64,000 nucleotides of DNA from Alphaproteobacteria bacterium UBA2966 (GTDB lineage Bacteria; Pseudomonadota; Alphaproteobacteria; UBA2966): positions 21,821 through 85,820 of the forward strand of contig DEBC01000137.1 in the NCBI GenBank assembly GCA_002348365.1, in the 5' to 3' direction. The position numbers and the translations under genes were made by a program. Positions 20,629 through 48,729 of the stretch are shown in pieces (the first letter of the stretch is position 1; each line of letters begins with the position of its first letter). Under the pieces are notes generated by a model. The model saw only the letters and a program-made list of their open reading frames with translations, did no database searches and was not told the DNA's origin.

Positions 20629-20639
20629 ATTCGACCGTC

Positions 20640-23124: not shown

Positions 23125-23164
23125 ACAAGTTCATGCCTCTCTCATGTAATCGCCGCGGGGCACT

Positions 23165-24726: not shown

Positions 24727-24750
24727 TCGCGCTGGAAAAACAGGCCTGCC

Positions 24751-25752: not shown

Positions 25753-25770
25753 TCGTCGAAAAGGCTTGCC

Positions 25771-28292: not shown

Positions 28293-29687
28293 TTGAGTAC
28301 CCCAACATATGCCCAACGCATCAAGCGTAAGGTCGGCACCACTATCCTGGGTCCTATCCTGACCCGGCTGGCGGCGGAGGGCAGGGCGCCGCTCGTAGGC
28401 AAGCTCATCCGCAGCCAGCTTGTTACGCTGAAGCAGCCACAAGTCCACGAGTCGCAGGCGATTAGCACGCTCATTCTTCCCAAGCCTGGATTCTCTGAAG
28501 ATATCCAAGCCAGCCTCGGTCGCGACGGTCGCTTTCGCATCGTCTCACTCGATCGTACCTATACCAAGTTCGTCTATAGAGCGTTCCTCCCGAAAACGGT
28601 CGATGACAACAACTATCGCTCCGCTCCACCGGAAACCGCCGACAAGAAGCTCCAATTGCGAGATTTCTGGCAAGCCGCTTGGCCCCACGTCAGCCGTGGA
28701 CAGATTGATGTCCTGTTGACCGGGAATTTCAGTTATCACGCCGAACAGGAACTCACGGCGGCGCTTGAGGTGCATGGCACACCGGTCGTCGCGTTGCACA
28801 AGGAATGCCTGAAAAGCCCAGCGCTCGAGACGTTCTACGAACACGTCTACCGTGAACGGAAGATCCCATTCCAGGGCAGTTTCATCTCGACCTACAATGA
28901 GATCGAGCGTGACATTCAGGTTCGTGCCGGGACCGTTTCCCCCGACAGGGTGGTCGTGTCCGGCATGGCGCGTCTCGATAAAATACATCACTGGCGGGAG
29001 AAGTTTGGAGGTACGATCCGTCGAACCGGTGAGCGGCCTACCGTATTGTTCATGTCGTTCAATGCGCGCACCGGCGCCCCTTTGATTTCGCGGAAGCTTC
29101 CGGGACGGAGGGAGATTCTCGACGAGGCTCAGGAAGCGGTCGGTTGGGACAGGCTGGTCGTTGAATGTCATGCGGCGATGGTCGACCTCGCCCGGCAAGA
29201 GCCGGATATCGACGTTGTCATCAAAGCCAAGGATCACGCCCGGGCTTTGGCGGTGATCGAGGAAAGCTTTGGACATGATTTCAAGACACCTGCGAATCTG
29301 AAGATCATCTGCGGCGGCGATCCGTTCTCGCTCATAACGCAGGCAGACGTTCTTTGCGGATTTAACAGCACCAGCCTGTTCGAGGCATTGGCGGCCAACG
29401 TCCCGATCGTCTCACCGCATTTTGTGGAAGCGGCGGCGGAGGATACGAAGGGCTATGTCATTGACCTCGGCGACGCGGCAGAACGGGCGCACAGCCGACA
29501 GGAGTTGATTGCTCGCCTCGCCGCGCGCGCCCGATCCACGCACGCATCGGGCCATGCAACGACCCTGGCTGACGCACAACTTCGGGCGCTCGATCACTGG
29601 CTCGGCAATGCCGATGGAAAAGCGGGTGAGCGCGTTGCATCGCTTGTCAGCGAAATCGTCCGGTCTGAGCAGCGAGCGGCTGCCTGA
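28293..29687 (+). CDS. Putative GT-B-like glycosyltransferase, tandem paralogue 1 of 3.
   Basis: Colinear with paralogues 2 and 3 (…VLLTGNFSYHAEQELTAALEVHGTPVVALHKECLK… and …QADVLCGFNSTSLFEALAANVPIVSPHF…). The TTG start is at 28293. Confidence 0.55.
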   Translation: MSTPTYAQRIKRKVGTTILGPILTRLAAEGRAPLVGKLIRSQLVTLKQPQVHESQAISTLILPKPGFSEDIQASLGRDGRFRIVSLDRTYTKFVYRAFLPKTVDDNNYRSAPPETADKKLQLRDFWQAAWPHVSRGQIDVLLTGNFSYHAEQELTAALEVHGTPVVALHKECLKSPALETFYEHVYRERKIPFQGSFISTYNEIERDIQVRAGTVSPDRVVVSGMARLDKIHHWREKFGGTIRRTGERPTVLFMSFNARTGAPLISRKLPGRREILDEAQEAVGWDRLVVECHAAMVDLARQEPDIDVVIKAKDHARALAVIEESFGHDFKTPANLKIICGGDPFSLITQADVLCGFNSTSLFEALAANVPIVSPHFVEAAAEDTKGYVIDLGDAAERAHSRQELIARLAARARSTHASGHATTLADAQLRALDHWLGNADGKAGERVASLVSEIVRSEQRAAA

Positions 29688-29703: not shown

Positions 29704-31098
29704 ATGAACGACAAGATCCGCCGCCACGTTTGGTGGTTCGCGTTTCGCACTGTCGCGCGTCTCAACTTGGCGCGTGCTGCTGCCTGGCTCATGGTTCGCG
29801 CCTTGGGGGGTGCTCAAACTGGATCTTCAGGTCAGGATGCAAAGAAGCTTCTGCTGTTGTCCAAACGAGGCCTGTTCGAGGATGCCGCGTCGGCTTTTGA
29901 AGGCGATCAGAGATTCGAGCCCTGGTATCTCGACATGGTCGAGATCAAACCTTTCAAGGCAATGGTCTCAGCCTTCCTGCCCCCCGAAATAGATGATTTC
30001 AACTATCTCTCAGATGACTCAGAAGTGGAGGCGGGCAAACGCGCGTACCGTGATTTCGCGGTTCAGGTGCTGAAGCACTTCCTCGCCCAAATGCCCTTTG
30101 ATGCAGTTCTGACAGCGAGCTTTTCCTACTATGCGGAACGAGAAGTGGCGGCTGCTTTCGAGCAATTGGGTGTGCCGTTCATCGCGTTACATAAGGAAAA
30201 CCTGAAAACCCCCGGCATCTTCAAATTCTACGAAGAGGTCTATCGCACGCGTCGCGGTCCGTTCCATGGCAGACGAATTCTCGTCTACAACGGAATTGAG
30301 AAGAATCTGCAGGTTGCGGCCGGCGTCGCGCCGGAAGGGAACATCACCGTGACCGGAATGCCCCGGCTCGACCGAATACATGAATGGCGTCAAGCGCAGG
30401 CCGGGCTGCGACCTGACACGAGTGGTCAAGCGACTACCGCTCATCAGGCGCTCTTCTTCGCGTTCGGACCGAAGACAGGGCTGCCACGCATGGCTCGCAA
30501 GCTCGGGTTCGGGATGCCGGAAGGCCTCGAGCAATTCGGTGACGAGCGGGATCAATTTTCCTGGGATGAGCTTGCCCGTTCGTATCACCGGGCAGCCGTC
30601 GAAGTCGCTCGACAAATGCCCGACATTCGAGTGATCGTGAAGGCCAAGCCGGTTCCCTTCGAAGTCGCAGCGATTCGAGAACTTCTTGGTGATGGCGATG
30701 ACCTTCCCGAGAACCTCACTCTGATCTCAAGTGGCGACCCGATGGAATTGATCCTTAAGAGCAATGTCGTATGCGGATTTCGGACGACCGCGCTCCTTGA
30801 GGTCATCGCGGCGGGTAAACCCCTCATCGTTCCTCATTTTGCCGAAGCCGCGACACCACAGCTGTCTGAATTCATTTTCGATGTTGAGTCGGCCGCAGAG
30901 TATGCCGACTCCGAAGAGGACATTGTCCGCAGAGTCTGCCATCACCTGACAAACAGCGAAGGGACAAGGGTCGCGCTTGAGTCGAGTGAGATGACCGTTC
31001 TCGAGAAGTGGACGGGAAATGTAGACGGCAAGTCGGGTGCGCGGGTGGCCAATGCGGTTCACGCAGAGATTTTGGGCGCACCGGTGGAGCACGACTGA
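29704..31098 (+). CDS. Putative GT-B-like glycosyltransferase, tandem paralogue 2 of 3.
   Basis: …AVLTASFSYYAEREVAAAFEQLGVPFIALHKENLK… and …KSNVVCGFRTTALLEVIAAGKPLIVPHF… The ATG at 29704 follows the paralogue-1 stop by 16 nt. Confidence 0.55.
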   Translation: MNDKIRRHVWWFAFRTVARLNLARAAAWLMVRALGGAQTGSSGQDAKKLLLLSKRGLFEDAASAFEGDQRFEPWYLDMVEIKPFKAMVSAFLPPEIDDFNYLSDDSEVEAGKRAYRDFAVQVLKHFLAQMPFDAVLTASFSYYAEREVAAAFEQLGVPFIALHKENLKTPGIFKFYEEVYRTRRGPFHGRRILVYNGIEKNLQVAAGVAPEGNITVTGMPRLDRIHEWRQAQAGLRPDTSGQATTAHQALFFAFGPKTGLPRMARKLGFGMPEGLEQFGDERDQFSWDELARSYHRAAVEVARQMPDIRVIVKAKPVPFEVAAIRELLGDGDDLPENLTLISSGDPMELILKSNVVCGFRTTALLEVIAAGKPLIVPHFAEAATPQLSEFIFDVESAAEYADSEEDIVRRVCHHLTNSEGTRVALESSEMTVLEKWTGNVDGKSGARVANAVHAEILGAPVEHD

Positions 31099-31102: not shown

Positions 31103-32467
31103 ATGTCATCACGACCGTGGCTTCTTCTCCCCATCGAAACCAAGCACCGGGAATTTTATGGCAAGATATTGTTGTCACTCGCCGCAGCCGAACGGGGTTT
31201 CGAAGTACTGCTCGGCGAACAGAACGCCATGCTTTCCCAACTCGATAACCTCCCCCAAGGCATATATCTCGACAAGAGCGTCGGCCGCACGAAGACCAAG
31301 TATTTCAAGAGACTTGATGCGCGAGGTTGCCGGATCGTGGCGTGGTGCGAAGAGGGCCTCGTCTATCGCGACCGCGACGCCTATCTGCACGAGCGTGTTT
31401 CCAACGCATCTCTGGCGCTAGCCAACAGGTTCTTCGCCTGGGGCGATGTGCAGGCCAATGATATTCACAAGCAAGCCCCAGAGGCGGATGCCAAGGTGCG
31501 GATCACCGGCAACCCACGCTTCGACATGTTGCGACCCGAATTCCGCAGTGTCTTCACGCCCGCGGCCGACAAGATTCGACAGTGCTACGGTCCATACATC
31601 CTCATCAATTCGAACTTCAGCCGGTACAACCACTTCATGGGCTACGACTTCTGGATCGAGGCCCTAAAACAGCGCGGCACGATCACGAACGATGAACAGC
31701 TCGCCTTCTACCATCGCTGGCGCGACTTCCTGGGAAAGGTCTTTCACGGCTTCATCCGTGTCATGCCGGCTCTCTCATCTGCATTCCCCGATCGGACGTT
31801 ACTGGTACGGCCACATCCGTCTGAAGATCACGCTACCTGGCTCCGCGAAACGGCTGCACTCAACAATGTCACCGTTGTGCATGAGGACAGCGCAATCCCC
31901 TGGATCGCAGGTGCCGATGCCGTCATACACAACAGCTGCACCACCGGTCTTGAGGCGTACCTTCTGGGTATTCCTGTTGCTGCATTCCGGCCTGCTGTCG
32001 ATGAGACATTTGATTCCCACCTCCCGAATGCGGTCAGTCACGAAGCGGTGGACGGCGAGGGCCTTATTGAAACCCTGCGCGAGCTCCTGGCGGGCACCGC
32101 GACCCCGCCGCCTTCCGCACAATCGGAGGTGAATAGATATGTAGCCGCGCTCGATGGCTCACTCGCGGGAGACCGTGTCGCGGATGCGTTGATCGAAATC
32201 TCTTTACGCTGTGAACCCCAGAAAATGGGACCGATACGACGCGCGAGAATTGCCCGGGAAAACACTGTCTCGGCGCTTAAGCCTATGCTCAGACGGATAC
32301 GCCGCAGCCATAAAGCGACGTCCTACGCGAAGCAAAAGTTTCCCGGAATTGAGCTCTCAGAGGTCGAACACGCCATAAACCAATTGAGAGACGTCTCGGG
32401 TCGCTTCGCCGGCATCACTTCGACGCGTTCACCGTTCCGTCACTGTTTTCGGATTTGCAAGACCTAA
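31103..32467 (+). CDS. Putative sialyltransferase-like glycosyltransferase, tandem paralogue 3 of 3.
   Basis: Contains …IVAWCEEGLVYRD… (D/E-D/E-G-type motif) and …LLVRPHPSEDH… (HP motif) ~160 aa apart. This matches the spacing of the two bacterial sialyltransferase motifs. The C-terminus …GADAVIHNSCTTGLEAYLLGIPV… parallels paralogues 1 and 2. Confidence 0.5.
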   Translation: MSSRPWLLLPIETKHREFYGKILLSLAAAERGFEVLLGEQNAMLSQLDNLPQGIYLDKSVGRTKTKYFKRLDARGCRIVAWCEEGLVYRDRDAYLHERVSNASLALANRFFAWGDVQANDIHKQAPEADAKVRITGNPRFDMLRPEFRSVFTPAADKIRQCYGPYILINSNFSRYNHFMGYDFWIEALKQRGTITNDEQLAFYHRWRDFLGKVFHGFIRVMPALSSAFPDRTLLVRPHPSEDHATWLRETAALNNVTVVHEDSAIPWIAGADAVIHNSCTTGLEAYLLGIPVAAFRPAVDETFDSHLPNAVSHEAVDGEGLIETLRELLAGTATPPPSAQSEVNRYVAALDGSLAGDRVADALIEISLRCEPQKMGPIRRARIARENTVSALKPMLRRIRRSHKATSYAKQKFPGIELSEVEHAINQLRDVSGRFAGITSTRSPFRHCFRICKT

Positions 32468-32486
32468 CTGGGAACAGGTACCCCAA

Positions 32487-33656
32487 TCAGCCTGCCTCTA
32501 CACCACCGCCCACCCATTTGATACGCGGCTCCATCGTGTCGAGATTCACGTTGTCCCGGTACCGTTCGACACGATCCATCATCGATCCCACGACCTCGCT
32601 GGTCAGAAGATGGGGTTGCAGCCCCAGGTCTGTCAGCTTGGAATGTTTGGCATTGTAGTAGTGCGACTCCTGCTCCACCCGCGGGTTCGCCACGTTCTCG
32701 ATTACGACATCCAGGCCACGCGTCCTGCCGGTCTCTTGCACGAGGTTGGCGAGATTGAGGATTGAATACTCCTCGGTGAACTGGTTGAAGACACGGAACT
32801 CTCCGGGCTTAGCCGGATTCCGCGCCGCCAACTCGACGCATTGAAGGGTATCGCGAATATTCAGAATTCCCCGGGTTTGACCGCCCTTCCCATACACGGA
32901 CAGCGGTTGCCCCATCACGGCCTGAACGACGAAACGGTTCAGCACTGTCCCGAACACATGGTCGTAGTGAAAGGATGTCGCCAACTCATCGTCGAGAAGC
33001 GTTTCCGTCGTGTCGATGCCGTAGACCACGCCCTGGTTCAGATCGGTCGCACGGACACCCCAGATTCGACAGGTAAACGCGATGTTGTTCGAATCATGAA
33101 CCTTTGACAGGTGATAAAAGCTGTGCGGCTTCTTCGGGTAGAGCACGGTGTCGGTCCGCCCGTTGTGGGTGACCGTCAGATAACCTTCCTCTATGTCGAT
33201 GTTAGGGGTGCCGTACTCACCCATGCTCCCGAGCTTGACCAGGTGGGCGTCCGGGCAATGACGTCGAAGCGCGAACAGAACGTTCAACGTGCCGGTCACA
33301 TTGCCCATTTGGGTCAGGACAGCTGTAGTCCGGCCCTGCATGGAATAGGGGGCCGAAGGCTGTTCGGCGTAATGGATGATGACTTCGGGCTGCGCGGCCT
33401 GAAACAGGTTGTAAACGAACCGGTGATTGGTCAGATCGCCGACGCGCAACTCAATGGTTTTACCCGTTAGTTCTTTCCATCGACGGACTCGGCGATGCAA
33501 CGTGGGCACGGGCGCGATCGGCTCGACACCTTCTTCCAGCTCCCACTGGCGCTTGGCGAAATTGTCCGCCACCCAAACTTCGTCCCCCGCAGAAGAGAAA
33601 TGCATGGCGGTGGGCCAACCGAGATAGCCGTCACCACCCAAGACCAATACGCGCAT
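32487..33656 (-). CDS. sqdB: UDP-sulfoquinovose synthase (SqdB/SQD1/Agl3 family).
   Basis: MRVLVLGGDGYLGWPTAMHFS… and …HYAEQPSAPYSM…, …HLVKLGSMGEYGTPNIDIEEGY…, …FYHLSKVHDSNNIAFTCRIWGVRATDLNQGVVYG…, …LNRFVVQAVMGQPLSVYGKGGQTRG…IRDTLQCVELA… These blocks match SQD1/SqdB closely. Confidence 0.8.
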   Translation of the reverse strand: MRVLVLGGDGYLGWPTAMHFSSAGDEVWVADNFAKRQWELEEGVEPIAPVPTLHRRVRRWKELTGKTIELRVGDLTNHRFVYNLFQAAQPEVIIHYAEQPSAPYSMQGRTTAVLTQMGNVTGTLNVLFALRRHCPDAHLVKLGSMGEYGTPNIDIEEGYLTVTHNGRTDTVLYPKKPHSFYHLSKVHDSNNIAFTCRIWGVRATDLNQGVVYGIDTTETLLDDELATSFHYDHVFGTVLNRFVVQAVMGQPLSVYGKGGQTRGILNIRDTLQCVELAARNPAKPGEFRVFNQFTEEYSILNLANLVQETGRTRGLDVVIENVANPRVEQESHYYNAKHSKLTDLGLQPHLLTSEVVGSMMDRVERYRDNVNLDTMEPRIKWVGGGVEAG

Positions 33657-33748
33657 GAGAATTCCGAGCTAGTAGTTTGCTGTCGTAGGTGACAGGAATG
33701 CCGTCTGCAACGGCGGCGGCGTCCTTGTCTCATGAATGGAGCCTGGCA

Positions 33749-34489
33749 TCAAGCAGACTGCTCGATGTGTGGAAGCGAGACAAAACCGGCCCGAAGCAAC
33801 AAGTCACCCAGCCTGAAATCGTCAGGACCGTCGCAATCGAATCCATAAACGGCGGGCACTTCGACGGCTATGGAGGGGTCAGCGAAAACCGCCCCGGATT
33901 GAAGAATACTCTCCGATCGAAAAACAACCAGATTTCCGAACAGGTGATGCTTTGGCTTTGACTGTTTGTTGTAAGCCTGGAGTCGCTCTTCCGCGAAACG
34001 CCAACTCACGTAACCATCCGAGACCAAGCGTTGATTGTAGGCATGATGATTATGCGGACAGTCGATGACCGTCTGCGCCGATCCCGCCGAGGGATCGGCC
34101 AGAAGCTCTTTCACGCAGGTATCGATCTGCTCCGGCAAGATGAATGGCGAAGTTGGCTGCAACAACGCGATACATTCGGGCACGCCTCCCGAATCGGTCC
34201 CGCTGGTACGAAGAAAGTCCACTATGACATCAGCAACCGCAACCGAGTCGCCCGAAAGCGCAGCCGGCCGGGCACTCACTTCAACCTGCAATTCGCGGCA
34301 TCGCGCTTCAATTGGCTGAGAATCCGTGCTGCAGATGATTCGCGCCACCGAGGCACTCTGTTGCGCTGCGAGAGCGCAGTAATCGAGAAGCGGCCGCCCG
34401 CCCAGATCTGCGATGTTCTTGAGCGGTACGCTTCTTGAGCCGCCGCGCGCGGGGATCAGTCCCCAGCACACTCCAGGCAGAACGTTCAT
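33749..34489 (-). CDS. Acylneuraminate (nonulosonic acid) cytidylyltransferase, CMP-sugar synthetase copy 2.
   Basis: …GLIPARGGSRSVPLKN… CTP_transf_3. The ATGA overlap with the upstream 2-HADH gene is at 34486-34489. Confidence 0.8.
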   Translation of the reverse strand: MNVLPGVCWGLIPARGGSRSVPLKNIADLGGRPLLDYCALAAQQSASVARIICSTDSQPIEARCRELQVEVSARPAALSGDSVAVADVIVDFLRTSGTDSGGVPECIALLQPTSPFILPEQIDTCVKELLADPSAGSAQTVIDCPHNHHAYNQRLVSDGYVSWRFAEERLQAYNKQSKPKHHLFGNLVVFRSESILQSGAVFADPSIAVEVPAVYGFDCDGPDDFRLGDLLLRAGFVSLPHIEQSA

Positions 34490-35466
34490 GTTTCACCACC
34501 GCCCTTGCCTGAAAAGTACTCGACCGCCATGTCAACGACCCGCCTCTGGGTATCTCGCCAAGCATCAACCGTCGACCCACCGATGTGCGGTGTGATCAAC
34601 AGGTTGGAATGCGATCGGGCGTAATCCACAAGAGGATGCGCCGAAGCTTGAAATCCGGGATCGTATTCTCCGTCCAGCACATCGGTGGCGGCACCCGCAA
34701 TGGCGTTGCTCTTGAGCGCGTTCAAAAGGGCACTTTCATCAACAATTTCGCCGCGTGCTGTGTTTATCAAAACCGCTGATTTCTTCATGTGACCCAGTGA
34801 CTCGCGGTCAATCAGATGATGAGTCGAGTCATTGGCGGGCACATGAATCGATACGACGTCCGATTGCGCCAAGAGGTCTTTGAGGTTGTCGACCCGAAGG
34901 TACTCTGGGGACGGCGCCTCGACGTTGGGGTCAAAGTAACAAACCTGCATGCCGAACGCGCGGCCGTAACTTGCCAGTTTCTTCCCGAGCCGCCCCAGTC
35001 CGACAATGCCCAGTGAAAGCCGAGACAGCATGGCCGGTGCGCCGAAGTCGAATCGATTCCACGACCCATCCAGCACTGCGCCGTAGCTCCATGGAGTCCG
35101 CCGCAGCAGCGCCAACATCAGACCGAATGCGTGCTCCGCCGTAGGTGTGATCGTGTCGAGGAACGCCTGCTCGTCCTTCAGCGAAAACACCCGAATGCCA
35201 CGAGACGCCGCAGCTTCCATATCGATGTGGGGAACGCCGGTCGTGTTGCTTATGATGGCGCGCAGGTGAGAACACCGGACCATTTTTTTGGCGTCGAACA
35301 GATAGCCAAGGGGCGCGAAGCAGGCATCTACCTGCGAGAGGATCTCATCCGAATCCTCTGCAGGCGTGGGCAGCGCAATGACTTCGAACTCTTTCTCCAG
35401 CAAGGCCAAGTTCTCGGGCTGGTAGGAAAGCAGGTCGTAGTAGAGAACGCGAGGCTTGTCCGGCAA
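34486..35466 (-). CDS. D-isomer-specific 2-hydroxyacid dehydrogenase family protein (third copy in the window).
   Basis: …LGIVGLGRLGKKLA…, …LINTARGEIVDE…, …ITPHIGGST… It sits between the neuC-like and CMP-transferase genes. Confidence 0.8.
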   Translation of the reverse strand: MPDKPRVLYYDLLSYQPENLALLEKEFEVIALPTPAEDSDEILSQVDACFAPLGYLFDAKKMVRCSHLRAIISNTTGVPHIDMEAAASRGIRVFSLKDEQAFLDTITPTAEHAFGLMLALLRRTPWSYGAVLDGSWNRFDFGAPAMLSRLSLGIVGLGRLGKKLASYGRAFGMQVCYFDPNVEAPSPEYLRVDNLKDLLAQSDVVSIHVPANDSTHHLIDRESLGHMKKSAVLINTARGEIVDESALLNALKSNAIAGAATDVLDGEYDPGFQASAHPLVDYARSHSNLLITPHIGGSTVDAWRDTQRRVVDMAVEYFSGKGGGET

Positions 35467-35467
35467 T

Positions 35468-36613
35468 TCAGTAGGTCATTTGCTTGTTGAGAAGATTCTG
35501 GTCCACAACAACCGTTGCCAGCACATCCGTTATGCGGCGGTATGCAGTGCCGTCCCCGAACGGGGGCTGGACGTCGCGAAGGCGTTGGCGGAACTCCTCG
35601 TCGGAGACACAACGTTCGATGGCCGTTCGTATGGCATCTCGATCGTAATCGACGTCCATAACGTTTGCCGCGCGTTCTCGGCCTTTCTGTCGCTCCCCGA
35701 TATTCACGGAGGGGAGCCCAAAGTAAGGCGCTTCTATCAGGGCTGCCGATGAGTTCCCCACAATACACGCCGCCAACTTTTCCAGGCCGATGAAGTCAGC
35801 CGCCGGAATGTTGCGATGTACTGAAAGACCGGGTGAGTCGGCGACTCGTTCGATCTCTGAAATGATGCCTTCGAAACCTTGATCAGAGCAGGGGTAAACC
35901 AGCATGGCGCGATGACCCGTGGCAACCACGGCGGCGACGGTTTCGGCCATCTGGTCAGCCGCTCTGTGAGACACAGTCGAATCCGAATGCTGGAGGACAA
36001 GCATGAACGGCGCTTCCTCACTCAGATCATACTTCGCGCGGAGTTCGTCCGCGGGCGTTATGTCGCCGAGAAACACCTGATCAATATGGGTATCGCCTAC
36101 GACATGCACACGCCATGGCTCCTCCCCCATCGCGACAATTCGATCTGCGGAGGCCTGCGTTGAAGGAAAATGAATATGGGCAAGCTTGGTGATCGCATGC
36201 CGAACGGGTTCGTCCAGGCTTCCGGAAATATCGCCGCCCTGCACGTGCGCGATTGCCACCCGCATGTTGTGCGCGGCAATACAGGCGGCAAACACTTCGC
36301 CTCTGTCTCCAATGACCAGAAGAATATCGGGCTGCAGGTCCCCGAGAACCTGAGCGGCTTTTGTCAGGCAGCGCCCTATCGCTCCCGCCCGGTCCCGATT
36401 GGAATCGCCTTCCTGTTCCATGTCGATTGTCGCCGACACCGGGAATCGGGCTTGAACTTCGGTCACCGTCTTACCGAACCGGTCATACAGGTGTTGATCG
36501 GTGACCACGAGTTGAAGCGACAAGTCTGGGCTTTGTTGGATGGCATCCATGGTAGGCGCCAAGGCGCCAAATCCCCCGCGCTTGCCGTTCCACACACAGA
36601 CACGACGCATCAC
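35468..36613 (-). CDS. neuC: UDP-N-acetylglucosamine 2-epimerase (hydrolysing), NeuC/LegG-type, copy 1.
   Basis: Epimerase_2 fold: …DLLLVIGDRGEVFAACIAAHNMRVAIAHVQGGD…VRHAITKLAHIHFPST…. Confidence 0.85.
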   Translation of the reverse strand: MMRRVCVWNGKRGGFGALAPTMDAIQQSPDLSLQLVVTDQHLYDRFGKTVTEVQARFPVSATIDMEQEGDSNRDRAGAIGRCLTKAAQVLGDLQPDILLVIGDRGEVFAACIAAHNMRVAIAHVQGGDISGSLDEPVRHAITKLAHIHFPSTQASADRIVAMGEEPWRVHVVGDTHIDQVFLGDITPADELRAKYDLSEEAPFMLVLQHSDSTVSHRAADQMAETVAAVVATGHRAMLVYPCSDQGFEGIISEIERVADSPGLSVHRNIPAADFIGLEKLAACIVGNSSAALIEAPYFGLPSVNIGERQKGRERAANVMDVDYDRDAIRTAIERCVSDEEFRQRLRDVQPPFGDGTAYRRITDVLATVVVDQNLLNKQMTY

Positions 36614-37641
36614 ACGAGGTCCTCGAACGACAAAGCTTCATCGGCGACGACATCTCTGGCCAGCGTCCGACCGATGAATTCGGGCAGACGGTTGGACAGA
36701 ACTCCAGTGCCGGGCCGCTTCGTCGCCAGATCTTCTCTGGAAATGATGAGCCCTTCGGCAAGGTCCCGTGACGCGACCACCGACTTCAAAGCCCATGCCT
36801 GAGCGTCCACTTCCGAGGGCGCGGGTTCCTTTCTGCCGTGTCCGAGCAACGTCTCGATCCGCCGGATGTCTCGAACGAGACCCGGAAAGTCGTCCGGACC
36901 TGCGGATACCCTCCAGTCCTGGGCATCTGGAATGTCACGCAGGATCGTAATGTGTTTCTCAACGATCGATGCGCCGCGCGCCACGGCAGACAAAATGGCC
37001 AGATGATCTTCGGTATGGTCGGAATATCCGACAGGTCCCGGAAAAATTGATTGGAGCGCATCCATGGCCGAGAGATTCACATCAGATTCAGGTGTCGGAT
37101 AACTCGTCACGCAGTGCAGCAGCGCGACTTCGTCCATTCCGGCGTTGGAGAGGGCATCGAGCGCTTCCGTTACATCGGATTCCCGGTACATGCCCGTCGA
37201 GACGATCATTGGCTTTCCGAGCTGGGCCAACTGGGAGAGAAACTCGGGATTGTTCCGTTCACCCGAACCCACTTTAACCGCCGGAACATCAAGCTCCCGC
37301 AACCAATCAATTCGCGAGGCATCATGCGCCGTCGCCATGAACAGAAGGCCCGCTGCATCGCAGCGTTCCTTCAGTTCCTGAAACTGGGGCAACGACAAGT
37401 TTCTCGGCCGGAGGCGGTCGCGCCAGTCGGGCGCCGACTCCGCGATGAGCTCATCCACGTCGAACACCTGTGTTTTAAAGATATCGGCACCCGCTTCCGC
37501 GGCGAGATCCACGAGTTGGCGGGCGAGATCCATATCGCCAAAGTGTGCAACGCCGGCCTCCGCAATCACGAAGACAGGCGCGTCCGCCCCGACTTCTCGA
37601 TCGCCGATTCGAAAGCGCGATTTGAATTTCGAGGCGGGCAT
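36610..37641 (-). CDS. neuB: N-acylneuraminate (nonulosonic acid) synthase, NeuB/LegI/PseI family, copy 1.
   Basis: …PVFVIAEAGVAHFGDMDLARQLVD…DIFKTQ… NeuB TIM barrel plus a C-terminal SAF/antifreeze-like domain (…ATKRPGTGVL…). The ATGA overlap with neuC is at 36610-36613. Confidence 0.85.
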   Translation of the reverse strand: MPASKFKSRFRIGDREVGADAPVFVIAEAGVAHFGDMDLARQLVDLAAEAGADIFKTQVFDVDELIAESAPDWRDRLRPRNLSLPQFQELKERCDAAGLLFMATAHDASRIDWLRELDVPAVKVGSGERNNPEFLSQLAQLGKPMIVSTGMYRESDVTEALDALSNAGMDEVALLHCVTSYPTPESDVNLSAMDALQSIFPGPVGYSDHTEDHLAILSAVARGASIVEKHITILRDIPDAQDWRVSAGPDDFPGLVRDIRRIETLLGHGRKEPAPSEVDAQAWALKSVVASRDLAEGLIISREDLATKRPGTGVLSNRLPEFIGRTLARDVVADEALSFEDLV

Positions 37642-37743
37642 TCGGCTAGAAACCTTGCAATTTGGTGCGCATCTGCACGTTCGGATGCAGGCCCTTCACG
37701 CCTTCGAGGGGTTCGAATTCTGACATGATTCAAGCCTAAACCC

Positions 37744-37798
37744 TTGACGAACCTTCGATTAACAGCATAGCGTTCACACGATGAACACGCTGGCGGTA
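37744..37798 (+). promoter_or_regulatory. Second copy of the TTGACG-N17-ATAGCGTTC…TGAACACGCT motif, plus a sigma70-like TTCACA-N18-TATGAT promoter facing the ABC exporter gene.
   Basis: TTGACG is at 37744-37749, ATAGCGTTC at 37767-37775 and TGAACACGCT at 37782-37791. TATGAT (37794-37799) lies 18 nt downstream of TTCACA (37770-37775). The motif sits in the divergent neuB1 / ABC-exporter intergenic region. Confidence 0.35.
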
Positions 37799-37945
37799 TG
37801 ATGCGTCACTTGGCCCAGGCTGTAAAGCGTCGATGAGTGGTGCGGCGGGTGGTCGAGAGCACCATCGAGTTTGCTCCCAGCGCCCGCGGTATCGCCTCCA
37901 TAGGACCTATGTACCGCACCCGGAACACCAAGAGAGAGAGAATTC

Positions 37946-39691
37946 TTGAACCGACGGTTCGAAACACTTGGAAAAATCCGCCACCTCATCGCTAGGCGCG
38001 AATGGATCATTCTCGGACTCTGTTGCCTGATGCTCCTTGCCTCAGTCGCTGAGAGCATGGGACTGGCTCTTGTTCTCCCGCTGATCTCCAGTCTCACCGG
38101 TGTATCCGAGGGTTCCGGCACGGTTGCTGAGATTAGTGTAAGACTGCGGGAACTGATCCCTGATGGGGTTGAGCTTGAAGGCCTGGTGTTATTGGTGGCC
38201 CTGGCGTTTCTGCTCAAAGGCGTTCTTCTGGTGATGTCTCGTGGCGCCGCCGACTATTTCTCCTTCCGTCTGCGTGAAGACTGGGCCGCAAAGATTTTTG
38301 ATCACTACCTGCGCGCCCGCTATGCCTACGCGACGTCGCAGCGGCAGGGCGAGATGGTGAACAACATCACGATCGAGCCTTATCGGGCCGCCCGGGCGAT
38401 CACCGTCCTTCTCGATTTCTTGAATCGGATAATTCTGGCGACCGTGCTGCTTACAGTCCTGCTCTTCACCAACTGGCAGGCGACACTGACTATTTCGCTG
38501 GTTGGCGCGCTTCTGTTCTTTGCCGTTCGCAAGTCCACATTCAACTACTCCCTTCACTTCGGCAAGCTGCGCCAGAAGCTCTACCAGCAAATTTCATCCA
38601 TAGGAGCCGAAGCCACCGGGGCGGCCCTTCAGGTGAAGCTGTTCGGAATCTACGACCAGGTGACGGGAGAATTGACCGCCAGGCTCAAACGACACACGCG
38701 TGCTGAGACACTCTTTCGAATTCTCAATGAGATCCCTCTCCAGTCGACCGAATTCCTCATCGTCCTTTTCCTGAGCGTTGCGCTGATCACCCTCAAACAG
38801 GTGGGCGACGTCGCACCGGAAAGCATTGCGGCAATGTTGGGCTTTTATGTTGTGCTCGGTCAGCGGCTTCTCACCAACGTCAATTTCATCATTTCGCGAC
38901 GGATGAAGATTGCCTCACAGATCCCGTCACTGATGCTGATGCATGAGCTGATTGAGAACATTCCCGACCGCGAAGACATCGAAACAGGTCAGGAACTCGC
39001 AACCCTTGACGACGACATTGTCTTCGAGAATGTGACCTTCAGCCATGAGAACGGCAAGCGCGTTTTCCGCGATCTCAACCTGCGTATACCCAAAGGGAAA
39101 ATCACCGGAATCGTTGGCCCATCCGGCACCGGCAAGTCAACGTTCGCCGACCTCATCCTGGGTCTATATGCTCCCGATCACGGGAGTGTCAGCGTCGGGG
39201 GTCATGTGCTCTCGACATATAATCTCCGATCGGTCCGCCAGCGAATTGGGTACGTGAGCCAAGCCCCCGAAATCTTCAATACTTCGATCCGAGAGAACAT
39301 ACGGATTGGCAATCCCAGCGCATCTGAGGATGAAGTGGTTGCAGCTGCCCGCGATGCCCATGCCTTCGATTTTGTTGCCGAACTGCCCGACGGTTTCGAT
39401 ACCGTTGTCGGAGATCGTGGCGTGAAGTTGTCGGGCGGACAGAGGCAGCGGATCGCGATCGCGCGGGTCATTCTGCGCGCACCCGATCTTTACATTTTCG
39501 ACGAGGCGACAAGCGCCCTCGACACTGAATCGGAACGCCTCATTCAAGACTCGATCCAACGTCTTGCGCACAACGCGACAATTGTCATCATCGCGCACCG
39601 CCTCTCCACGGTGCAATCAGCCGACGTGATTTACGAACTCGATGACACCGGAAAAGCGACAGCGCGCGAATTTTCCGAGATTGCTGTATAG
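37946..39691 (+). CDS. ABC transporter, fused permease/ATPase (MsbA/PglK/NdvA-like type I exporter).
   Basis: Six N-terminal TM helices, Walker A GPSGTGKST, the signature LSGGQRQRIAIAR and Walker B IFDEATSALD. The TTG start at 37946 has an AGAGAGAGA RBS. Confidence 0.85.
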   Translation: MNRRFETLGKIRHLIARREWIILGLCCLMLLASVAESMGLALVLPLISSLTGVSEGSGTVAEISVRLRELIPDGVELEGLVLLVALAFLLKGVLLVMSRGAADYFSFRLREDWAAKIFDHYLRARYAYATSQRQGEMVNNITIEPYRAARAITVLLDFLNRIILATVLLTVLLFTNWQATLTISLVGALLFFAVRKSTFNYSLHFGKLRQKLYQQISSIGAEATGAALQVKLFGIYDQVTGELTARLKRHTRAETLFRILNEIPLQSTEFLIVLFLSVALITLKQVGDVAPESIAAMLGFYVVLGQRLLTNVNFIISRRMKIASQIPSLMLMHELIENIPDREDIETGQELATLDDDIVFENVTFSHENGKRVFRDLNLRIPKGKITGIVGPSGTGKSTFADLILGLYAPDHGSVSVGGHVLSTYNLRSVRQRIGYVSQAPEIFNTSIRENIRIGNPSASEDEVVAAARDAHAFDFVAELPDGFDTVVGDRGVKLSGGQRQRIAIARVILRAPDLYIFDEATSALDTESERLIQDSIQRLAHNATIVIIAHRLSTVQSADVIYELDDTGKATAREFSEIAV

Positions 39692-39721: not shown

Positions 39722-40777
39722 ATGACACACCCCACCATTGAAATCGCAGGCAAGACCATCGGCATTGGCCAGCCGGCGTTCCTGATCGCCGAAGTCGCCC
39801 AAACTCATGACGGATCGCTTGGCCTCGCTCATGCGTTCATCGATGCAGCGGCTGATACCGGGGCAGATGCCATCAAGTTTCAGACCCACATCGCCGATGC
39901 CGAATCCACGCTCGATGAAGAGTTCCGGGTTGCATTCAGCAAACAGGACAAGACGCGGTACGACTACTGGAAGCGCATGGAATTTACGCCTGAGCAGTGG
40001 TCGGGTCTGGCCGAACATGCCAGCGCGCGAGGCGTGGTGTTTCTCAGTTCGGCCTTTTCGGTGGCAGCCATCAATCTTCTGGAAGCGATTGGCATCCCGG
40101 CGTGGAAGGTAGGTTCCGGAGAATTCAGGTCGGACGACCTTCTGGCACGCCTGTGCGAGACCGGATTTCCGGTCATTTTCTCTACGGGGATGAGCACGTG
40201 GCAGGAAATTGAAACCGCTGTCGCAGCGTTTCAGGAGCAGAAGTCGCCGCTTGCGCTCCTTCAGTGCACGAGCCGTTACCCAACGCCTCTTGAGGAAGTC
40301 GGGCTGAATGTCATCGACGACCTTCGAAACCGCTTTGACGTCCCAGCCGGACTGTCGGATCACTCAGGGAGTATTTATCCATCGCTTGCCGCACTCGCGC
40401 GCGGTGCCAATCTCATCGAGGTCCACCTGACACTCGACAGGCGATTGTTTGGTCCCGATGTCCCGGTATCGCTGACACCTGACGAGATGCGAACGGTGTG
40501 CGAGGCGCGTGACGCCTTTGCGGTCATGGACGCCAATCCTGTCGACAAGGAGACCATGGCCAAGAACCTCAGCACCATGCGTGATCTCTTCACCAAGAGC
40601 CTGGCGGTGACGCGTCCTCTCGCAGCGGGTACCAGGCTGACACCAGATATGTTGACCTCGAAAAAGCCCGGCACCGGCATACCCGCTGGGGATCTGGGGG
40701 GCTTTGTGGGTCGAACCCTCGCGCGTGACGTATCACCTGACCGTTTGCTTTCTCTCGAGGATATTGATGGCGGATAA
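39722..40777 (+). CDS. neuB: N-acylneuraminate (nonulosonic acid) synthase, NeuB/LegI/PseI family, copy 2.
   Basis: …PAFLIAEVAQTHDGSLGLAHAFIDAAADTGADAIKFQTH… and a C-terminal SAF domain (…SKKPGTGIP…). Confidence 0.85.
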   Translation: MTHPTIEIAGKTIGIGQPAFLIAEVAQTHDGSLGLAHAFIDAAADTGADAIKFQTHIADAESTLDEEFRVAFSKQDKTRYDYWKRMEFTPEQWSGLAEHASARGVVFLSSAFSVAAINLLEAIGIPAWKVGSGEFRSDDLLARLCETGFPVIFSTGMSTWQEIETAVAAFQEQKSPLALLQCTSRYPTPLEEVGLNVIDDLRNRFDVPAGLSDHSGSIYPSLAALARGANLIEVHLTLDRRLFGPDVPVSLTPDEMRTVCEARDAFAVMDANPVDKETMAKNLSTMRDLFTKSLAVTRPLAAGTRLTPDMLTSKKPGTGIPAGDLGGFVGRTLARDVSPDRLLSLEDIDGG

Positions 40778-42002
40778 ACGCAAGATTTGCATCGTGGTGA
40801 ACAGCCGGGCCAATTACGCCCGAATCAAATCCGTCATGCGCGCCATCGAAGAGCACGAGGCTTTGGACCTCAAGCTTATCGTCGGTGCTTCGGCGCTGCT
40901 CCACCGGTTTGGCGCGGTTCGCGACATCATCGAAGCTGATGGCTTTACTCCGGTATCGACCGTTTACTCCATCGTCGAAGGTGAAACACCAACGACAATG
41001 GCAAAGTCGACAGGTATGGGCATCATCGAGCTCGCGACTCAATTCGAAAACATTCAGCCCGATATCGTCCTGACTGTCGCCGACAGGTTCGAGACGATCG
41101 CGACCGCCATCGCCGCCAGCTATATGAATATTCCCGTTGCGCACACACAAGGCGGGGAAGTCACAGGTTCCATCGACGAAAGCGTGCGCCATGCCGTAAC
41201 CAAGCTCGCGCATATTCATTTTCCTGCGACGGGTCGGGCTCGGGACAACGTCGTGCGTATGGGTGAGGACCCGGAAATGGTGTTTCTCACCGGATGTCCA
41301 TCAATCGACCTTATTGCGGATCTCGATCTACGAATGCCGCCCGATATGTTTGAGCGGTATCGCGGTGTCGGCGCACAAATTGACCCGTCGCAGCCTTACC
41401 TGGTCGTCCTCCAGCATCCCGTGACAACAGAGTACGGCTCAGGGTTAGATCAGATCTGGGAGACGCTGACCGCGGTCGAAAAAGTTGGTTTGCAGGCCGC
41501 ATGGCTATGGCCAAACGTGGATGCAGGGTCCGACGACATTTCAAAGGGACTGCGTGTTTACCGGGAGCGCAACAATCCCGACTGGCTCCACTTTTATCGT
41601 CACTTTGGCGCGGAGGATTACGCGCGCCTGATAAACAACGCGGCCTGCCTGGTCGGCAACTCAAGCTCTGGGCTGAGGGAGGGCGCATACCTCGGTGTTC
41701 CCGCAGTCAATATCGGGACCCGCCAACAAGGTCGGGAACATGGGGAGAACGTCATCCACGTCGACTATGACGCGGCGCAGATTGAAGCGACGGTCAACCA
41801 GCAAATATCTCACGGCCGGCACCAGAGCGCGCATTTATTCGGTGATGGAAATGCGGGCAGGAAAATTGCAGACGTTCTCGCCTCTGTCGAACCCAACGTT
41901 CAAAAGCGACTCACGTATGACCAGTCGCATGACCAGGGAATCCAACAGCTGGCAGAACGCGCGCGCCTGAGACGACATCTCACCGGGAACGGCACTCGAT
42001 GA
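40767..42002 (+). CDS. neuC: UDP-N-acetylglucosamine 2-epimerase (hydrolysing), NeuC-type, copy 2, with a C-terminal extension.
   Basis: …DIVLTVADRFETIATAIAASYMNIPVAHTQGGE…VRHAVTKLAHIHFPAT… The ATG at 40767 overlaps the neuB2 3' end by 11 nt. Confidence 0.8.
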   Translation: MADKRKICIVVNSRANYARIKSVMRAIEEHEALDLKLIVGASALLHRFGAVRDIIEADGFTPVSTVYSIVEGETPTTMAKSTGMGIIELATQFENIQPDIVLTVADRFETIATAIAASYMNIPVAHTQGGEVTGSIDESVRHAVTKLAHIHFPATGRARDNVVRMGEDPEMVFLTGCPSIDLIADLDLRMPPDMFERYRGVGAQIDPSQPYLVVLQHPVTTEYGSGLDQIWETLTAVEKVGLQAAWLWPNVDAGSDDISKGLRVYRERNNPDWLHFYRHFGAEDYARLINNAACLVGNSSSGLREGAYLGVPAVNIGTRQQGREHGENVIHVDYDAAQIEATVNQQISHGRHQSAHLFGDGNAGRKIADVLASVEPNVQKRLTYDQSHDQGIQQLAERARLRRHLTGNGTR

Positions 42003-43003
42003 CTTCGGTTAACAAGCACATCCTCGTCGTTGGAAGCGGCAGCGCTGGCAAGCGGCATGCTCGCAACCTCGCGTCCCGGGGCTGCACCATCTCGAGCATG
42101 GATCCGCGTCAGGACCGCCTCGCGGAGCTGGCCGAAGAGACTCCGGTGGAGCGGGGGTTCGACTCCATCGAAGCGGCTCTCGAAAACTCGGAGCGTCTAG
42201 ACGGCGTGGTCATCACATCGCCCCCCTTCTTTCACGTGGATCAAGCAATTGCGGCGATCGAGGCGAGGTTGCCGGTCCTGCTGGAGAAACCGGTCTCGCC
42301 CGATGCGACAAGCGCCCGCAAGCTAGCCCGGACTTGCGAGTCCCATGAGGTGGCACTCCTGCTGGGATACACTTGGCGCTGGTGGCCGCCCCTTCGAGAC
42401 GTCAAAACCAAGCTCGAATCGGGCGCTGTCGGGCGCCTGCGGCATGTTCGCTTCACCATGTCCGCACATCTAGCCGACTGGCATCCCTGGGAGCGCTATC
42501 AAGACTTCTTCATGTCCAGTCGAGAATTGGGTGGTGGCGCAATCCTCGACGAAAGCCATTGGATCGATCTGGCACTGTGGTTCTTCGGCATGCCGCGTTC
42601 CGTCTCGGCCCGAATCGAGAAGATCAGTGATCTCGAGATCGATGCGGACGACAATGTCGACATGATCCTGGAGTTCGATGACGGCCTGCGTGCCACCTTG
42701 CACCTCGATCTCTTCGGCAGACCTCACGAAAAGAGCATCCGATTCGTTGGCGAAGAGGGCAGTTGCTTGTGGACGGAATCACCCAATCGCGTCGCGTTTT
42801 CCGGCAGTGCCTCCGAGGACTGGGACGAGACCACATACACCTGCGAACGGAATGACATGTTTATGGGTGTGACCGAGGAATTCCTCGATGTGCTCGATGG
42901 GCAGAGCGTCACCACCTGCTCCATCGAGGATGGCGTCCGCGTACTCGACGTGATCGAGGCCGCCCGGCGCAGTCACGAAGAAGAGCGCCGCATCCCGCTA
43001 TAG
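41999..43003 (+). CDS. Gfo/Idh/MocA-family NAD(P)-dependent oxidoreductase.
   Basis: N-terminal Rossmann (…ILVVGSGSAGKRHARNL…) and a GFO_IDH_MocA C-domain. The ATGA overlap with neuC2 is at 41999-42002. Confidence 0.8.
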   Translation: MTSVNKHILVVGSGSAGKRHARNLASRGCTISSMDPRQDRLAELAEETPVERGFDSIEAALENSERLDGVVITSPPFFHVDQAIAAIEARLPVLLEKPVSPDATSARKLARTCESHEVALLLGYTWRWWPPLRDVKTKLESGAVGRLRHVRFTMSAHLADWHPWERYQDFFMSSRELGGGAILDESHWIDLALWFFGMPRSVSARIEKISDLEIDADDNVDMILEFDDGLRATLHLDLFGRPHEKSIRFVGEEGSCLWTESPNRVAFSGSASEDWDETTYTCERNDMFMGVTEEFLDVLDGQSVTTCSIEDGVRVLDVIEAARRSHEEERRIPL

Positions 43004-43819
43004 CTCAACGGCCGACTGGTCGGCATCCGCCCCGGCTTTACGCGAGTGGATGCTTGTCCGAGGGCGCCGCATGTTTGCCCAGCCTTGCCCCAGCAGCGCC
43101 GCCCCCACGATGACGGCACCGATCACCTGGACTGGTAACAGAACCCAAAGAAAATAAGACAGGCCGTCATGCAACAGCAGCAGCAACGGGGACAAAAAGG
43201 TAACGTTGTAGACCAACGCGGTCGTGCGCTGCTCGACGCGCAGCCAGCCCGACTGCCGTTCGGTTTCATCACCGGTCAATGGACCGGTTTCGCGAATCAT
43301 CCATTCGCGATGGTGGCTCACCCGTGATTTCGTCAGCTCTGCGTACACGGCGAGAAGGGTCACGGCGAAACCGGCAATCACAATCCGCACGTCGCCAGCG
43401 AGATGCCAGTATGCGAATCCCGCGGCGGCCGGGGTGAGTAGAGACAAGAACCTGTCCGCGAAGCCATCAAAGAATTTGCCCCAGTAGGTCACAGATTCCG
43501 ACATGCGGGCGATGTTGCCATCCAGGCAGTCGAGCACGAGATTGAGATATACGTGCACCATGAAGGCGAGAATCAGGTGCCGACTTCCACTGGCCAATGC
43601 CGCCAGGGCAAGCACGTTCAACAGGCACCGGACGACAGTCACCGTATTGGCCGATACACCCGCGTTGTAGACTGCCGGGGTGAGGTAGATGGCGAGTGGC
43701 CGGGCAAACAGCCTTACGAAAATTTGCGGTCGAACGTGGCTATTGAAGGAAGCTTTGACATCGTCGACAGTGATACGATCCGCCGGACGAGTTTCATGAT
43801 TGGGTGCTTCAGAGGTCAT
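42998..43819 (-). CDS. CDP-alcohol phosphatidyltransferase-family membrane protein.
   Basis: Signature …LDCLDGNIARMSESVTYWGKFFDGFADR… (D-G-x2-A-R…G-x3-D-x3-D) and multiple TM helices. Confidence 0.75.
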   Translation of the reverse strand: MTSEAPNHETRPADRITVDDVKASFNSHVRPQIFVRLFARPLAIYLTPAVYNAGVSANTVTVVRCLLNVLALAALASGSRHLILAFMVHVYLNLVLDCLDGNIARMSESVTYWGKFFDGFADRFLSLLTPAAAGFAYWHLAGDVRIVIAGFAVTLLAVYAELTKSRVSHHREWMIRETGPLTGDETERQSGWLRVEQRTTALVYNVTFLSPLLLLLHDGLSYFLWVLLPVQVIGAVIVGAALLGQGWANMRRPRTSIHSRKAGADADQSAVEL

Positions 43820-48604: not shown

Positions 48605-48729
48605 GATGCCCCCCAAAGGCGTATTGCGAACCGATTTCGGGAATTGCCGGACGCGAGGCCAGCTGAAATGGAACTCTCTTATAGTCCGTCGGGACCCGTC
48701 GCATCAACGCCGCGACGTCGCTGCAATTC

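Follow-up and report, generated by a model that had tools for sequence, protein, structure and literature searches.

An SQD1/SqdB-type sulfo-sugar synthase gene at the end of a nonulosonic acid operon in an alphaproteobacterial surface-glycan locus

The DNA analysed here is a 64-kb stretch (the window) of contig DEBC01000137.1 of Alphaproteobacteria bacterium UBA2966, and our subject is an operon at 32487-37641 in which a gene for an SQD1/SqdB-type enzyme, a homologue of UDP-sulfoquinovose synthase, stands last after genes for nonulosonic acid synthesis. The SQD1/SqdB family is best known for its part in making the sulfolipid sulfoquinovosyldiacylglycerol (SQDG), and sulfoquinovose is known from this lipid of photosynthetic membranes and from a few archaeal N-glycans. 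The evidence base is the window together with the 10-kb flanks of related loci (designated by L numbers), and all of it is comparative. Taken together, the data indicate that the enzyme is very probably a sulfo-sugar synthase that serves a surface glycan specifically and is linked in function to nonulosonic acid synthesis, not to sulfolipid.

The operon and its SqdB-like enzyme

Five minus-strand genes fill positions 32487-37641. The open reading frame (ORF) calls give the order neuB, neuC, D-2-hydroxyacid dehydrogenase, cytidylyltransferase and sqdB, exactly as an earlier note on this DNA had described it. The features of the region are as follows.

37642-37945, no strand: divergent intergenic region between neuB and an ATP-binding cassette (ABC) transporter gene, with promoter-like sites
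36610-37641, minus strand: NeuB-type nonulosonic acid synthase of the SqdB-associated subtype, 343 aa (PF03102 and SAF domain)
35468-36613, minus strand: NeuC-type hydrolysing UDP-N-acetylhexosamine (UDP-HexNAc) 2-epimerase, 381 aa (PF02350, TIGR03568)
34486-35466, minus strand: D-isomer 2-hydroxyacid dehydrogenase, accessory to the cassette, 326 aa (PF02826)
33749-34489, minus strand: cytidylyltransferase resembling CMP-nonulosonic acid synthetases (CTP_transf_3), 246 aa (PF02348)
33657-33748, minus strand: 92-nt spacer with a conserved sequence block
32487-33656, minus strand: SQD1/SqdB-type UDP-sulfoquinovose synthase homologue, 389 aa (NF041015, alignment with SQD1)

There is a 4-nt overlap between neuB and neuC, a 1-nt spacer between neuC and the dehydrogenase gene and a further 4-nt overlap between the latter and the cytidylyltransferase gene, and the 92 nt ahead of sqdB are the only real gap in the operon. 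sqdB is the final gene of the run, and a convergent gene stops 19 nt away, at 32467. The GC content is even over the operon region. Independent contigs from marine metagenomes, up to 311 kb long, have the identical five-gene order, and the string is therefore not an assembly artefact. Within 32000-38200 promoter-like sites were called only in 37642-37945, one on each strand, and this region is likely to be the start of the operon.

No terminator-like or sigma-70-like site was called in the 92-nt spacer. It contains a block, TTG(C/A)(A/T)..AT(A/T)TC..GAGACA, that also occurs in L092, L007, L009, L098 and L176, and the SqdB proteins of the relatives that keep the block are just 70-73% identical. 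The block may act as a promoter within the operon or bind a regulator. A riboswitch or other structured RNA was considered for the spacer and rejected, as an Rfam search gave no match and there was no consensus RNA fold. A search for the block elsewhere in the window found nothing, but the pattern was one base too long and missed its own site, so this result says little.

The product of the last gene is closely related to SQD1. In a search of solved structures its residues 2-387 aligned without a gap to residues 3-388 of the SQD1 structure 1qrr (520 bits, E = 2.5e-155), and its identity to Arabidopsis SQD1 is about 58%. The UDP-sulfoquinovose synthase model NF041015 matches over its full length with 440 bits, which is under the equivalog cut-off of 575. 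The protein has the motifs GxxGxxG, S144-M-G-E-Y and Y-H-L-S-K as well as His95, and a His lies next to the catalytic Tyr; it carries the [ST]MG...Yx3K signature that a review gives for SQD1 and Agl3 (PMC8987622), together with His183. Residues H96, [ST]145, M146, G147, E148, Y149, Y182, H183 and K186 are kept in 116 of the 120 closest homologues. By sequence and signature, the last operon gene encodes a genuine SQD1/SqdB-type enzyme. The earlier note had seen a clear SqdB homologue here, and this is borne out.

The likeness to Arabidopsis SQD1 and bacterial SqdB (1qrr, 1i24) covers the fold, the length, the gapless identity, the GxxGxxG, [ST]MG and YHxxK motifs and His183. In contrast with those enzymes, the protein has Pro at the position of SQD1 Arg101, carries K36, N78, S229 and H231 and differs at lid positions 109 and 112; its gene has no SQDG glycosyltransferase gene next to it and lies within a nonulosonic acid operon. 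Among the 120 closest homologues in the database, only a handful lack the full K36/N78/S229/H231 signature.

The only glycan precedent for a sulfo-sugar synthase is archaeal Agl3 of Sulfolobus acidocaldarius, which likewise serves a surface glycan and not a lipid. Replacement of His95, Arg101, Met145, Tyr182 or Lys186 by Ala inactivates Agl3, which is roughly 40% identical to plant SQD1 (PMC4388408). The SqdB-like protein, with its identity of about 58%, is closer to SQD1 and retains four of these five residues (His95, Met145, Tyr182 and Lys186). In further contrast with Agl3, the window is bacterial (RsmB, PurH and a glutathione S-transferase are encoded in it), it has no Agl16-type transferase, and its SqdB-like gene is linked to nonulosonic acid genes, whereas Agl3 is not.

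Conserved linkage to nonulosonic acid genes

Related loci were collected in a genome scan with one genome per species, and a metagenome scan and look-ups added more; the added loci are L089-L101, L104, L107-L109, L122 and L157, and include a metagenome-assembled genome (MAG) of Gammaproteobacteria. In all of the eight closest genome relatives, which are alphaproteobacterial MAGs with SqdB identities of 63-74%, SqdB lies beside NeuB, NeuC and cytidylyltransferase homologues, and the same is true of a Falkowbacteria genome of the Candidate Phyla Radiation (CPR). The other loci of the genome scan, about 70 from Acidobacteriota, Chloroflexota and Actinomycetota, have no NeuB, NeuC or cytidylyltransferase beside SqdB. 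In high-GC loci our simple ORF caller called spurious antisense ORFs, and for this reason the neighbour statistics for Acidobacteriota and Chloroflexota were taken from tblastn with the window proteins and a few Pfam checks only.

Linkage was counted in loci with at least 3 kb of flank, and nonulosonic acid genes were sought within 6 kb. They are present in every locus with the N78 signature (24/24), in none of 12 sister-clade loci and in none of 102 SQD1-like loci (0/114 outside the clade). The linked loci span Alphaproteobacteria, Gammaproteobacteria, a CPR bacterium and unassigned contigs. A phylogeny of the protein, as the earlier note had proposed, shows the linked SqdB sequences to be monophyletic, with neighbour-joining bootstraps of 98/100 when only the Alphaproteobacteria are counted and 75/100 when the CPR sequence is added. 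In a collection of plasmids we found lipid-type and actinobacterial SqdB relatives, which served as controls, and no cassette.

The order of the genes is not constant. With CT for cytidylyltransferase, 2HADH for 2-hydroxyacid dehydrogenase, MT for methyltransferase, rSAM for radical S-adenosylmethionine protein and GFO for GFO oxidoreductase, it is SqdB-NeuB-NeuC-2HADH-CT in L096, NeuB-2HADH-CT-x-MT-rSAM-SqdB-NeuC in L172, NeuB-NeuC-GFO-GFO-x-CT-SqdB in L177 and NeuB-2HADH-CT-SqdB-x-NeuC in L178, and L122 is a further locus with a different order. This shows that the linkage has been kept through rearrangement. In the reciprocal test, where loci were picked through their NeuB homologues, SqdB was in the same gene string in six of seven. 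Minimal cassettes of NeuB-NeuC-CT-SqdB occur in L101, L104, L108 and L173, and apart from SqdB none of their enzymes could change the precursor at C4-C6. Additionally, the adjacency of NeuC and SqdB persists in L008 and L089, where there is no NeuB within 10 kb.

Three candidate markers of the linked clade were examined. K36, S229 and H231 were rejected as linkage-specific because they are also present in the unlinked sister clade, and Pro101 was rejected because it is also found in Chloroflexota and Actinomycetota without such genes nearby. The change D78N tracks linkage perfectly. It lies in what we take, by homology with GalE and RmlB, to be the NAD-binding DxxD segment; it was therefore not accepted as a determinant of specificity and is treated as a lineage marker only.

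These data bear on the explanation that the family name would suggest, namely that the operon serves ordinary SQDG synthesis and that the position of sqdB beside nonulosonic acid genes has no functional meaning. SQDG is the best-known role of the family, and a glycosyltransferase of family GT4, to which SqdX and SQD2 belong, is encoded in the window. However, neither SqdD (GT8) nor SqdX/SQD2 (GT4) is adjacent to sqdB in the window, to which the search of this genome was confined, and the lone GT4 gene is 12 kb away, is a generic match and belongs to a sulfotransferase-methyltransferase-GT4-Wzy_C string. In Sinorhizobium meliloti, our positive control, a glycosyltransferase gene directly follows sqdB, and the identity of the SqdB-like protein to lipid-type alphaproteobacterial SqdB, whose glycosyltransferase follows in this way, is only about 38%. 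Linkage in 24 of 24 clade loci and none of 114 others, through rearrangements and across phyla, is also difficult to reconcile with chance placement, and we regard the sulfolipid explanation as highly improbable. The earlier statement that no sulfolipid glycosyltransferase is nearby is correct for the adjacent genes, and needs the qualification that a GT4 gene of the SqdX/SQD2/Agl16 family, albeit generic, lies 12 kb off.

Partner enzymes and a possible sulfonated nonulosonic acid

Families were assigned with Pfam and NCBIfam profiles and their curated cut-offs. The NeuC-like protein matches PF02350 (Epimerase_2) with 262 bits and the NeuC_NnaA model TIGR03568 with 356 bits, above the cut-off of 236; it reaches only 120 bits with the wecB model, under the cut-off of 210. 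The cytidylyltransferase matches PF02348 (CTP_transf_3) with 76 bits, and its best NCBIfam match is PseF with 83 bits. This is well under the cut-off of 206 and 'neuA' is therefore a loose label. A NeuB-type enzyme, a NeuC-type enzyme and a CMP-sugar synthetase are thus found together, as in a nonulosonic acid module. The 2-hydroxyacid dehydrogenase matches PF02826 (2-Hacid_dh_C) with 173 bits and has only generic closest relatives among solved structures (phosphoglycerate dehydrogenase and glyoxylate reductase); about half to two thirds of the related cassettes include it.

The NeuB partner matches PF03102 with 215 bits and has a SAF domain; with TIGR03569 it reaches 308 bits against a cut-off of 400, and it scores under both the NeuB and the PseI cut-offs. 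It keeps the catalytic residues of Neisseria meningitidis NeuB and Arg314, which binds the N-acetyl carbonyl of N-acetylmannosamine (ManNAc) (PMC11339185, PMC7371886). Asn74 of the N. meningitidis enzyme, which binds the C6-OH of ManNAc and is conserved in N-acetylneuraminate (Neu5Ac) synthases (PMC11339185), is missing: the region is deleted and the sequence WRDRLRPR is found instead. The beta2-alpha2 loop, reported to set C4-C6 specificity (PMC11339185, PMC7371886), is shorter by 12 residues, and the second residue past Asp247 is Arg. The loop consensus in this NeuB subtype is W-R/K-x-R..L/M-R/K-x-R/K, with Lys or Arg two residues past Asp247. By the TIGR03569 score and by the missing Asn74 alike, the protein does not look like an N-acetylneuraminate synthase proper. 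The subtype is constant over the proteobacterial cassettes (43-82% identity) while the types of NeuC and cytidylyltransferase are swapped, and the other NeuB subtypes that occur beside SqdB (in the CPR locus, L107 and L157) have short basic loops too.

Four further sets of genes outside the operon are relevant to the fate of the sugar.

31103-32467, plus strand: GT-B protein of the 'surface carbohydrate biosynthesis' family TIGR04396, candidate nonulosonic acid transferase
28293-29687 and about 29704-31098, plus strand: two paralogues of about 460 aa, distant relatives of TIGR04396/BFO_1060
37946-39691, plus strand: fused ABC exporter resembling MsbA, PglK and HepA (ABC_tran and ABC_membrane domains)
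45649-46833, 12 kb from sqdB: GT4 glycosyltransferase, generic match

The product of 31103-32467 matches TIGR04396 with 389 bits (cut-off 125) and the BFO_1060 model with 81 bits, under the cut-off of 200. Its motifs E105-E106-G107 and H260-P261 are nearly invariant over 43 homologues, and its AlphaFold model (pLDDT, the predicted local distance difference test score, 91) has a GT-B fold. BFO_1060 is the orthologue of the Tannerella transferase Tanf_01245 for pseudaminic (Pse) or legionaminic (Leg) acid, which has the D/E-D/E-G and HP motifs of sialyltransferases (PMC5420450). The window protein has the fold and the motifs of this type of transferase. A sequence search of solved structures gave only noise for it, and a fold search returned generic GT-B proteins (UDP-GlcNAc 2-epimerases and TagF) and no specific sialyltransferase. 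The two paralogues have no Pfam match, only weak NCBIfam matches (E about 1e-7) and neither the EEG nor the HP motif; their homologues flank the cassette in L007, L009, L090, L092 and L176. In all, three proteins of about 460 aa without a Pfam match run convergent with sqdB. The exporter scores 328 bits with HepA, 291 with MsbA and 259 with PglK, all under the cut-offs, and a homologue adjoins the cassette in L013, L014, L098, L108, L172, L173, L176 and L178. It is a probable flippase for a lipid-linked glycan.

We tentatively favour a model in which SqdB opens a biosynthetic route to a CMP-activated 9-deoxy-9-sulfo nonulosonic acid and this sugar, C-sulfonated and resembling sialic acid, is displayed at the cell surface. 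SqdB would take the role of LegB or PseB: it would oxidise C4 of a UDP-hexose, most likely UDP-N-acetylglucosamine (UDP-GlcNAc), and eliminate the 6-OH, and would then add sulfite, not hydride, at C6 to give a UDP-6-deoxy-6-sulfo-hexosamine. The NeuC-type enzyme would remove UDP with 2-epimerisation, the specialised NeuB would condense the 6-sulfo sugar with phosphoenolpyruvate (PEP) to the 9-deoxy-9-sulfo nonulosonic acid, and the cytidylyltransferase would convert this to the CMP-sugar. The neighbouring TIGR04396/BFO_1060-like GT-B proteins might then move the sugar onto a lipid-linked glycan, which the adjacent ABC exporter would flip. We infer the substrate of SqdB, the order of steps and the product.

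Such a pathway would resemble those of Leg and Pse (LegB/PseB, LegG/PseG, LegI/PseI and LegF/PseF), in which an enzyme of the extended short-chain dehydrogenase/reductase (SDR) type, working through a 4-keto-5,6-ene at C6 of a nucleotide-HexNAc, is followed by NeuC-type and NeuB-type enzymes and a cytidylyltransferase; a Tannerella-type GT-B protein is nearby here as well. In contrast with those pathways, the SDR enzyme here is of the sulfite-adding SQD1 type and not a dehydratase, the cassette has no aminotransferase or acetyltransferase, and NeuB, with a C4-C6 loop of its own, reaches neither the NeuB nor the PseI cut-off. The animal route through Neu5Ac-9-phosphate synthase, in which ManNAc-6-phosphate is joined to PEP, also condenses a hexosamine that is anionic at C6. 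Unlike that route, a C-linked sulfonate would be set here at the nucleotide-sugar stage, the cassette has no kinase or phosphatase, and the bacterial-type Arg314 is kept.

The earlier note had taken a different view, in which ordinary UDP-sulfoquinovose is made from UDP-glucose and added as a separate residue of a surface glycan that also bears nonulosonic acid; the genes would then travel together because both sugars are in one repeat unit. There is archaeal precedent for this in Agl3 and Agl16 (PMC4388408), and the active-site motifs are identical to those of SQD1. In the Chloroflexota sister clade SqdB is paired with a flippase and a GT4 protein, and in the window UDP-sulfoquinovose could be used by the GT4 protein or by the two GT-B-like paralogues without sialyltransferase motifs. 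However, the conserved partners of SqdB are nonulosonic acid biosynthetic genes and no Leloir glycosyltransferase is among them; the 8-10 kb around the cassette in L001, L172, L173 and L177 hold no GT2 or GT4, and the GT4 protein of the window reaches just 29 bits with the Agl16 model NF041010 (cut-off 575). Three further observations would have no explanation under a separate donor: the co-variation with SqdB of one NeuB subtype that lacks the Asn for the C6-OH, the adjacency of NeuC and SqdB where NeuB is absent, and the position of cysH, cysD and cysN between the cytidylyltransferase gene and sqdB-neuB in the CPR operon. As the conserved partners are nonulosonic acid enzymes, above all one NeuB with an altered C6 pocket, SqdB as a step within the pathway fits at least equally well. 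The role in a glycan proposed in the earlier note is well supported by the 24/24 linkage, and we consider the use of UDP-sulfoquinovose as a separate donor a strong rival, somewhat less likely than the pathway above.

Several points weigh against the sulfonated nonulosonic acid pathway. The sugar-proximal motifs SMGEYG, YHLSK, LNQGVVYG and PRVE..HYYNAKH are the same as in SQD1, which is specific for UDP-glucose, and no obvious adaptation to a 2-acetamido group was seen in them. We know of no SQD1 homologue that uses UDP-GlcNAc, of no NeuC, NeuB or CMP-synthetase that accepts a 6-sulfo sugar, and of no natural C-sulfonated nonulosonic acid. The second NeuB of the window also has basic residues in the corresponding loop, and the argument from a basic pocket is therefore only moderate. 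In L094 the NeuB that adjoins SqdB is of another type. In L175 and L180, which are from one genome, the same NeuB subtype and cassette are present with no SqdB within 8 kb, and a glycan cluster elsewhere on the L175 contig is also without SqdB. At a Chloroflexota sister-clade locus a Wzx-like flippase and a GT4 gene follow sqdB, as would be expected if UDP-sulfoquinovose were an ordinary donor. Finally, Arg101, which is essential in Agl3, is replaced. Pro101 is common to a large group from Chloroflexota, Actinomycetota and Alphaproteobacteria, while SQD1 and S. meliloti SqdB have Arg; to our knowledge no member of the Pro101 group has been characterised. Pro101 is a caveat on the exact chemistry that we predict for the SqdB-like enzyme.

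This caveat leads to the explanation that enzymes of the Pro101 group do not add sulfite at all and are UDP-hexose 5,6- or 4,6-dehydratases that feed a 9-deoxy nonulosonic acid in the manner of LegB or PseB. SQD1 and Agl3 are known to release UDP-Glc-5,6-ene when sulfite is absent (PMC8987622), the Arg101 that Agl3 requires is missing, and the place of the gene in the operon resembles that of LegB or PseB. Against this, the SQD1-specific residues M146, E148, Y149, H183 and H96 are strongly conserved, and the basic NeuB loop suits an anionic substituent at C6 and not a methyl group. The supply of sulfite is also informative. The CPR locus L037 has on one strand (2732-12182) genes for a TagB-like glycosyltransferase, NeuC, a methyltransferase, a cytidylyltransferase, CysH, CysD, CysN, SqdB and NeuB, so that the sulfate-to-sulfite genes cysH, cysD and cysN are within the operon and directly ahead of sqdB, and cysNC and cysD adjoin the cassette in L089 and L177. 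This supports sulfite-dependent sulfonation over plain dehydration, and we consider a dehydratase unlikely. That a minimal-genome CPR bacterium has its own sulfate-to-sulfite genes in a sialic acid-like operon is an observation in its own right.

The wider glycan locus and the spread of the enzyme

The operon is part of one large surface-glycan locus that occupies about 12.7-53 kb of the window. The locus also encodes an MBOAT protein, two sulfotransferases, a deacetylase, several methyltransferases, Wzy_C, a WecA-like initiating transferase and a PglF-like dehydratase. There is a second nonulosonic acid set in the window, with neuB2, neuC2, a GFO oxidoreductase, a second cytidylyltransferase, a second 2-hydroxyacid dehydrogenase and a thiamine pyrophosphate (TPP) enzyme. 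Two sets of neuB, neuC and cytidylyltransferase genes in one window would be redundant unless their precursors differ.

The second module extends over 17181-26700 and 39722-43003 and is also found in L179. It comprises genes for a methyltransferase, a 2-hydroxyacid dehydrogenase, a TPP enzyme, an MBOAT protein, an uncharacterised protein, a cytidylyltransferase, a sulfotransferase and a polysaccharide deacetylase, and neuB2-neuC2-GFO, and its content suggests that the product is an O-sulfated or re-acylated nonulosonic acid. In the cultured alphaproteobacterium Pseudorhodoplanes sinuspersici the module is a single contiguous run that adjoins a TIGR04396 protein. When a cultured carrier of the sqdB cassette was sought, none turned up; this species was found to have the second module and no SqdB within 10 kb.

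Other genes of the locus and its surroundings are as follows.

14476-15741, minus strand: TviB-like UDP-GlcNAc C6 dehydrogenase (400 bits, against at most 147 bits for a match of the UDP-glucose dehydrogenase kind)
15927-17113: helix-turn-helix (HTH) regulator and NusG-like protein, a candidate antiterminator of the RfaH/UpxY type, which open the plus-strand glycan operon
42998-43819, minus strand: CDP-alcohol phosphatidyltransferase
48062-50090, minus strand: biotin transporter of the energy-coupling factor (ECF) type (BioY, CbiQ and ATPase), which splits the locus between the Wzy_C and WecA-like genes
56556-61406, minus strand: ORF of 1616 aa downstream of the glycan locus

A homologue of the TviB-like gene lies directly after SqdB in L098 (11192-12457) and L176 (14168-15433), and the HTH and NusG-like pair also precedes the cassette in L176. 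The CDP-alcohol phosphatidyltransferase is conserved in L092; its closest matches, which are weak, are synthases of phosphatidylinositol-phosphate and archaetidylinositol-phosphate, and its role may be to attach a phospho-alcohol as a decoration or to supply a lipid anchor.

SQD1-like genes outside the linked clade are also found in settings that do not look classical. These are L015-L019, L022, L029 and L063 (Chloroflexota and related), L017, L033, L060 and L085 (Solirubrobacterales), and L020 and other Acidobacteriota loci; among the Acidobacteriota the neighbours of sqdB, judged by eye, include proteins of the ArnT/PMT, GT2/GT21 and AsnB types. Bacterial glycoconjugates with sulfoquinovose may be commoner than has been thought.

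Full-text searches of the available literature found no paper that connects sqdB, or sulfoquinovose itself, to nonulosonic acids or to any bacterial polysaccharide, in agreement with the earlier remark that sulfoquinovose in such a polysaccharide is undescribed. This enzyme type is found in over 100 distinct protein clusters from uncultured bacteria, among them abundant ocean Alphaproteobacteria and a minimal-genome CPR bacterium. If UDP-sulfoquinovose is a separate donor, this would be a bacterial glycan that contains sulfoquinovose. If SqdB instead acts within the pathway proposed above, which would then be widespread and undescribed in marine and other environmental bacteria, its end product would represent a class of natural sulfonate not known before and would add a branch to sialic acid chemistry. 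Either way, the operon would provide a surface sugar that is new, anionic and free of phosphorus; such a sugar would bring to the marine sulfur cycle an organosulfonate source that has not been counted so far, and would offer phages and grazers a new epitope to recognise.

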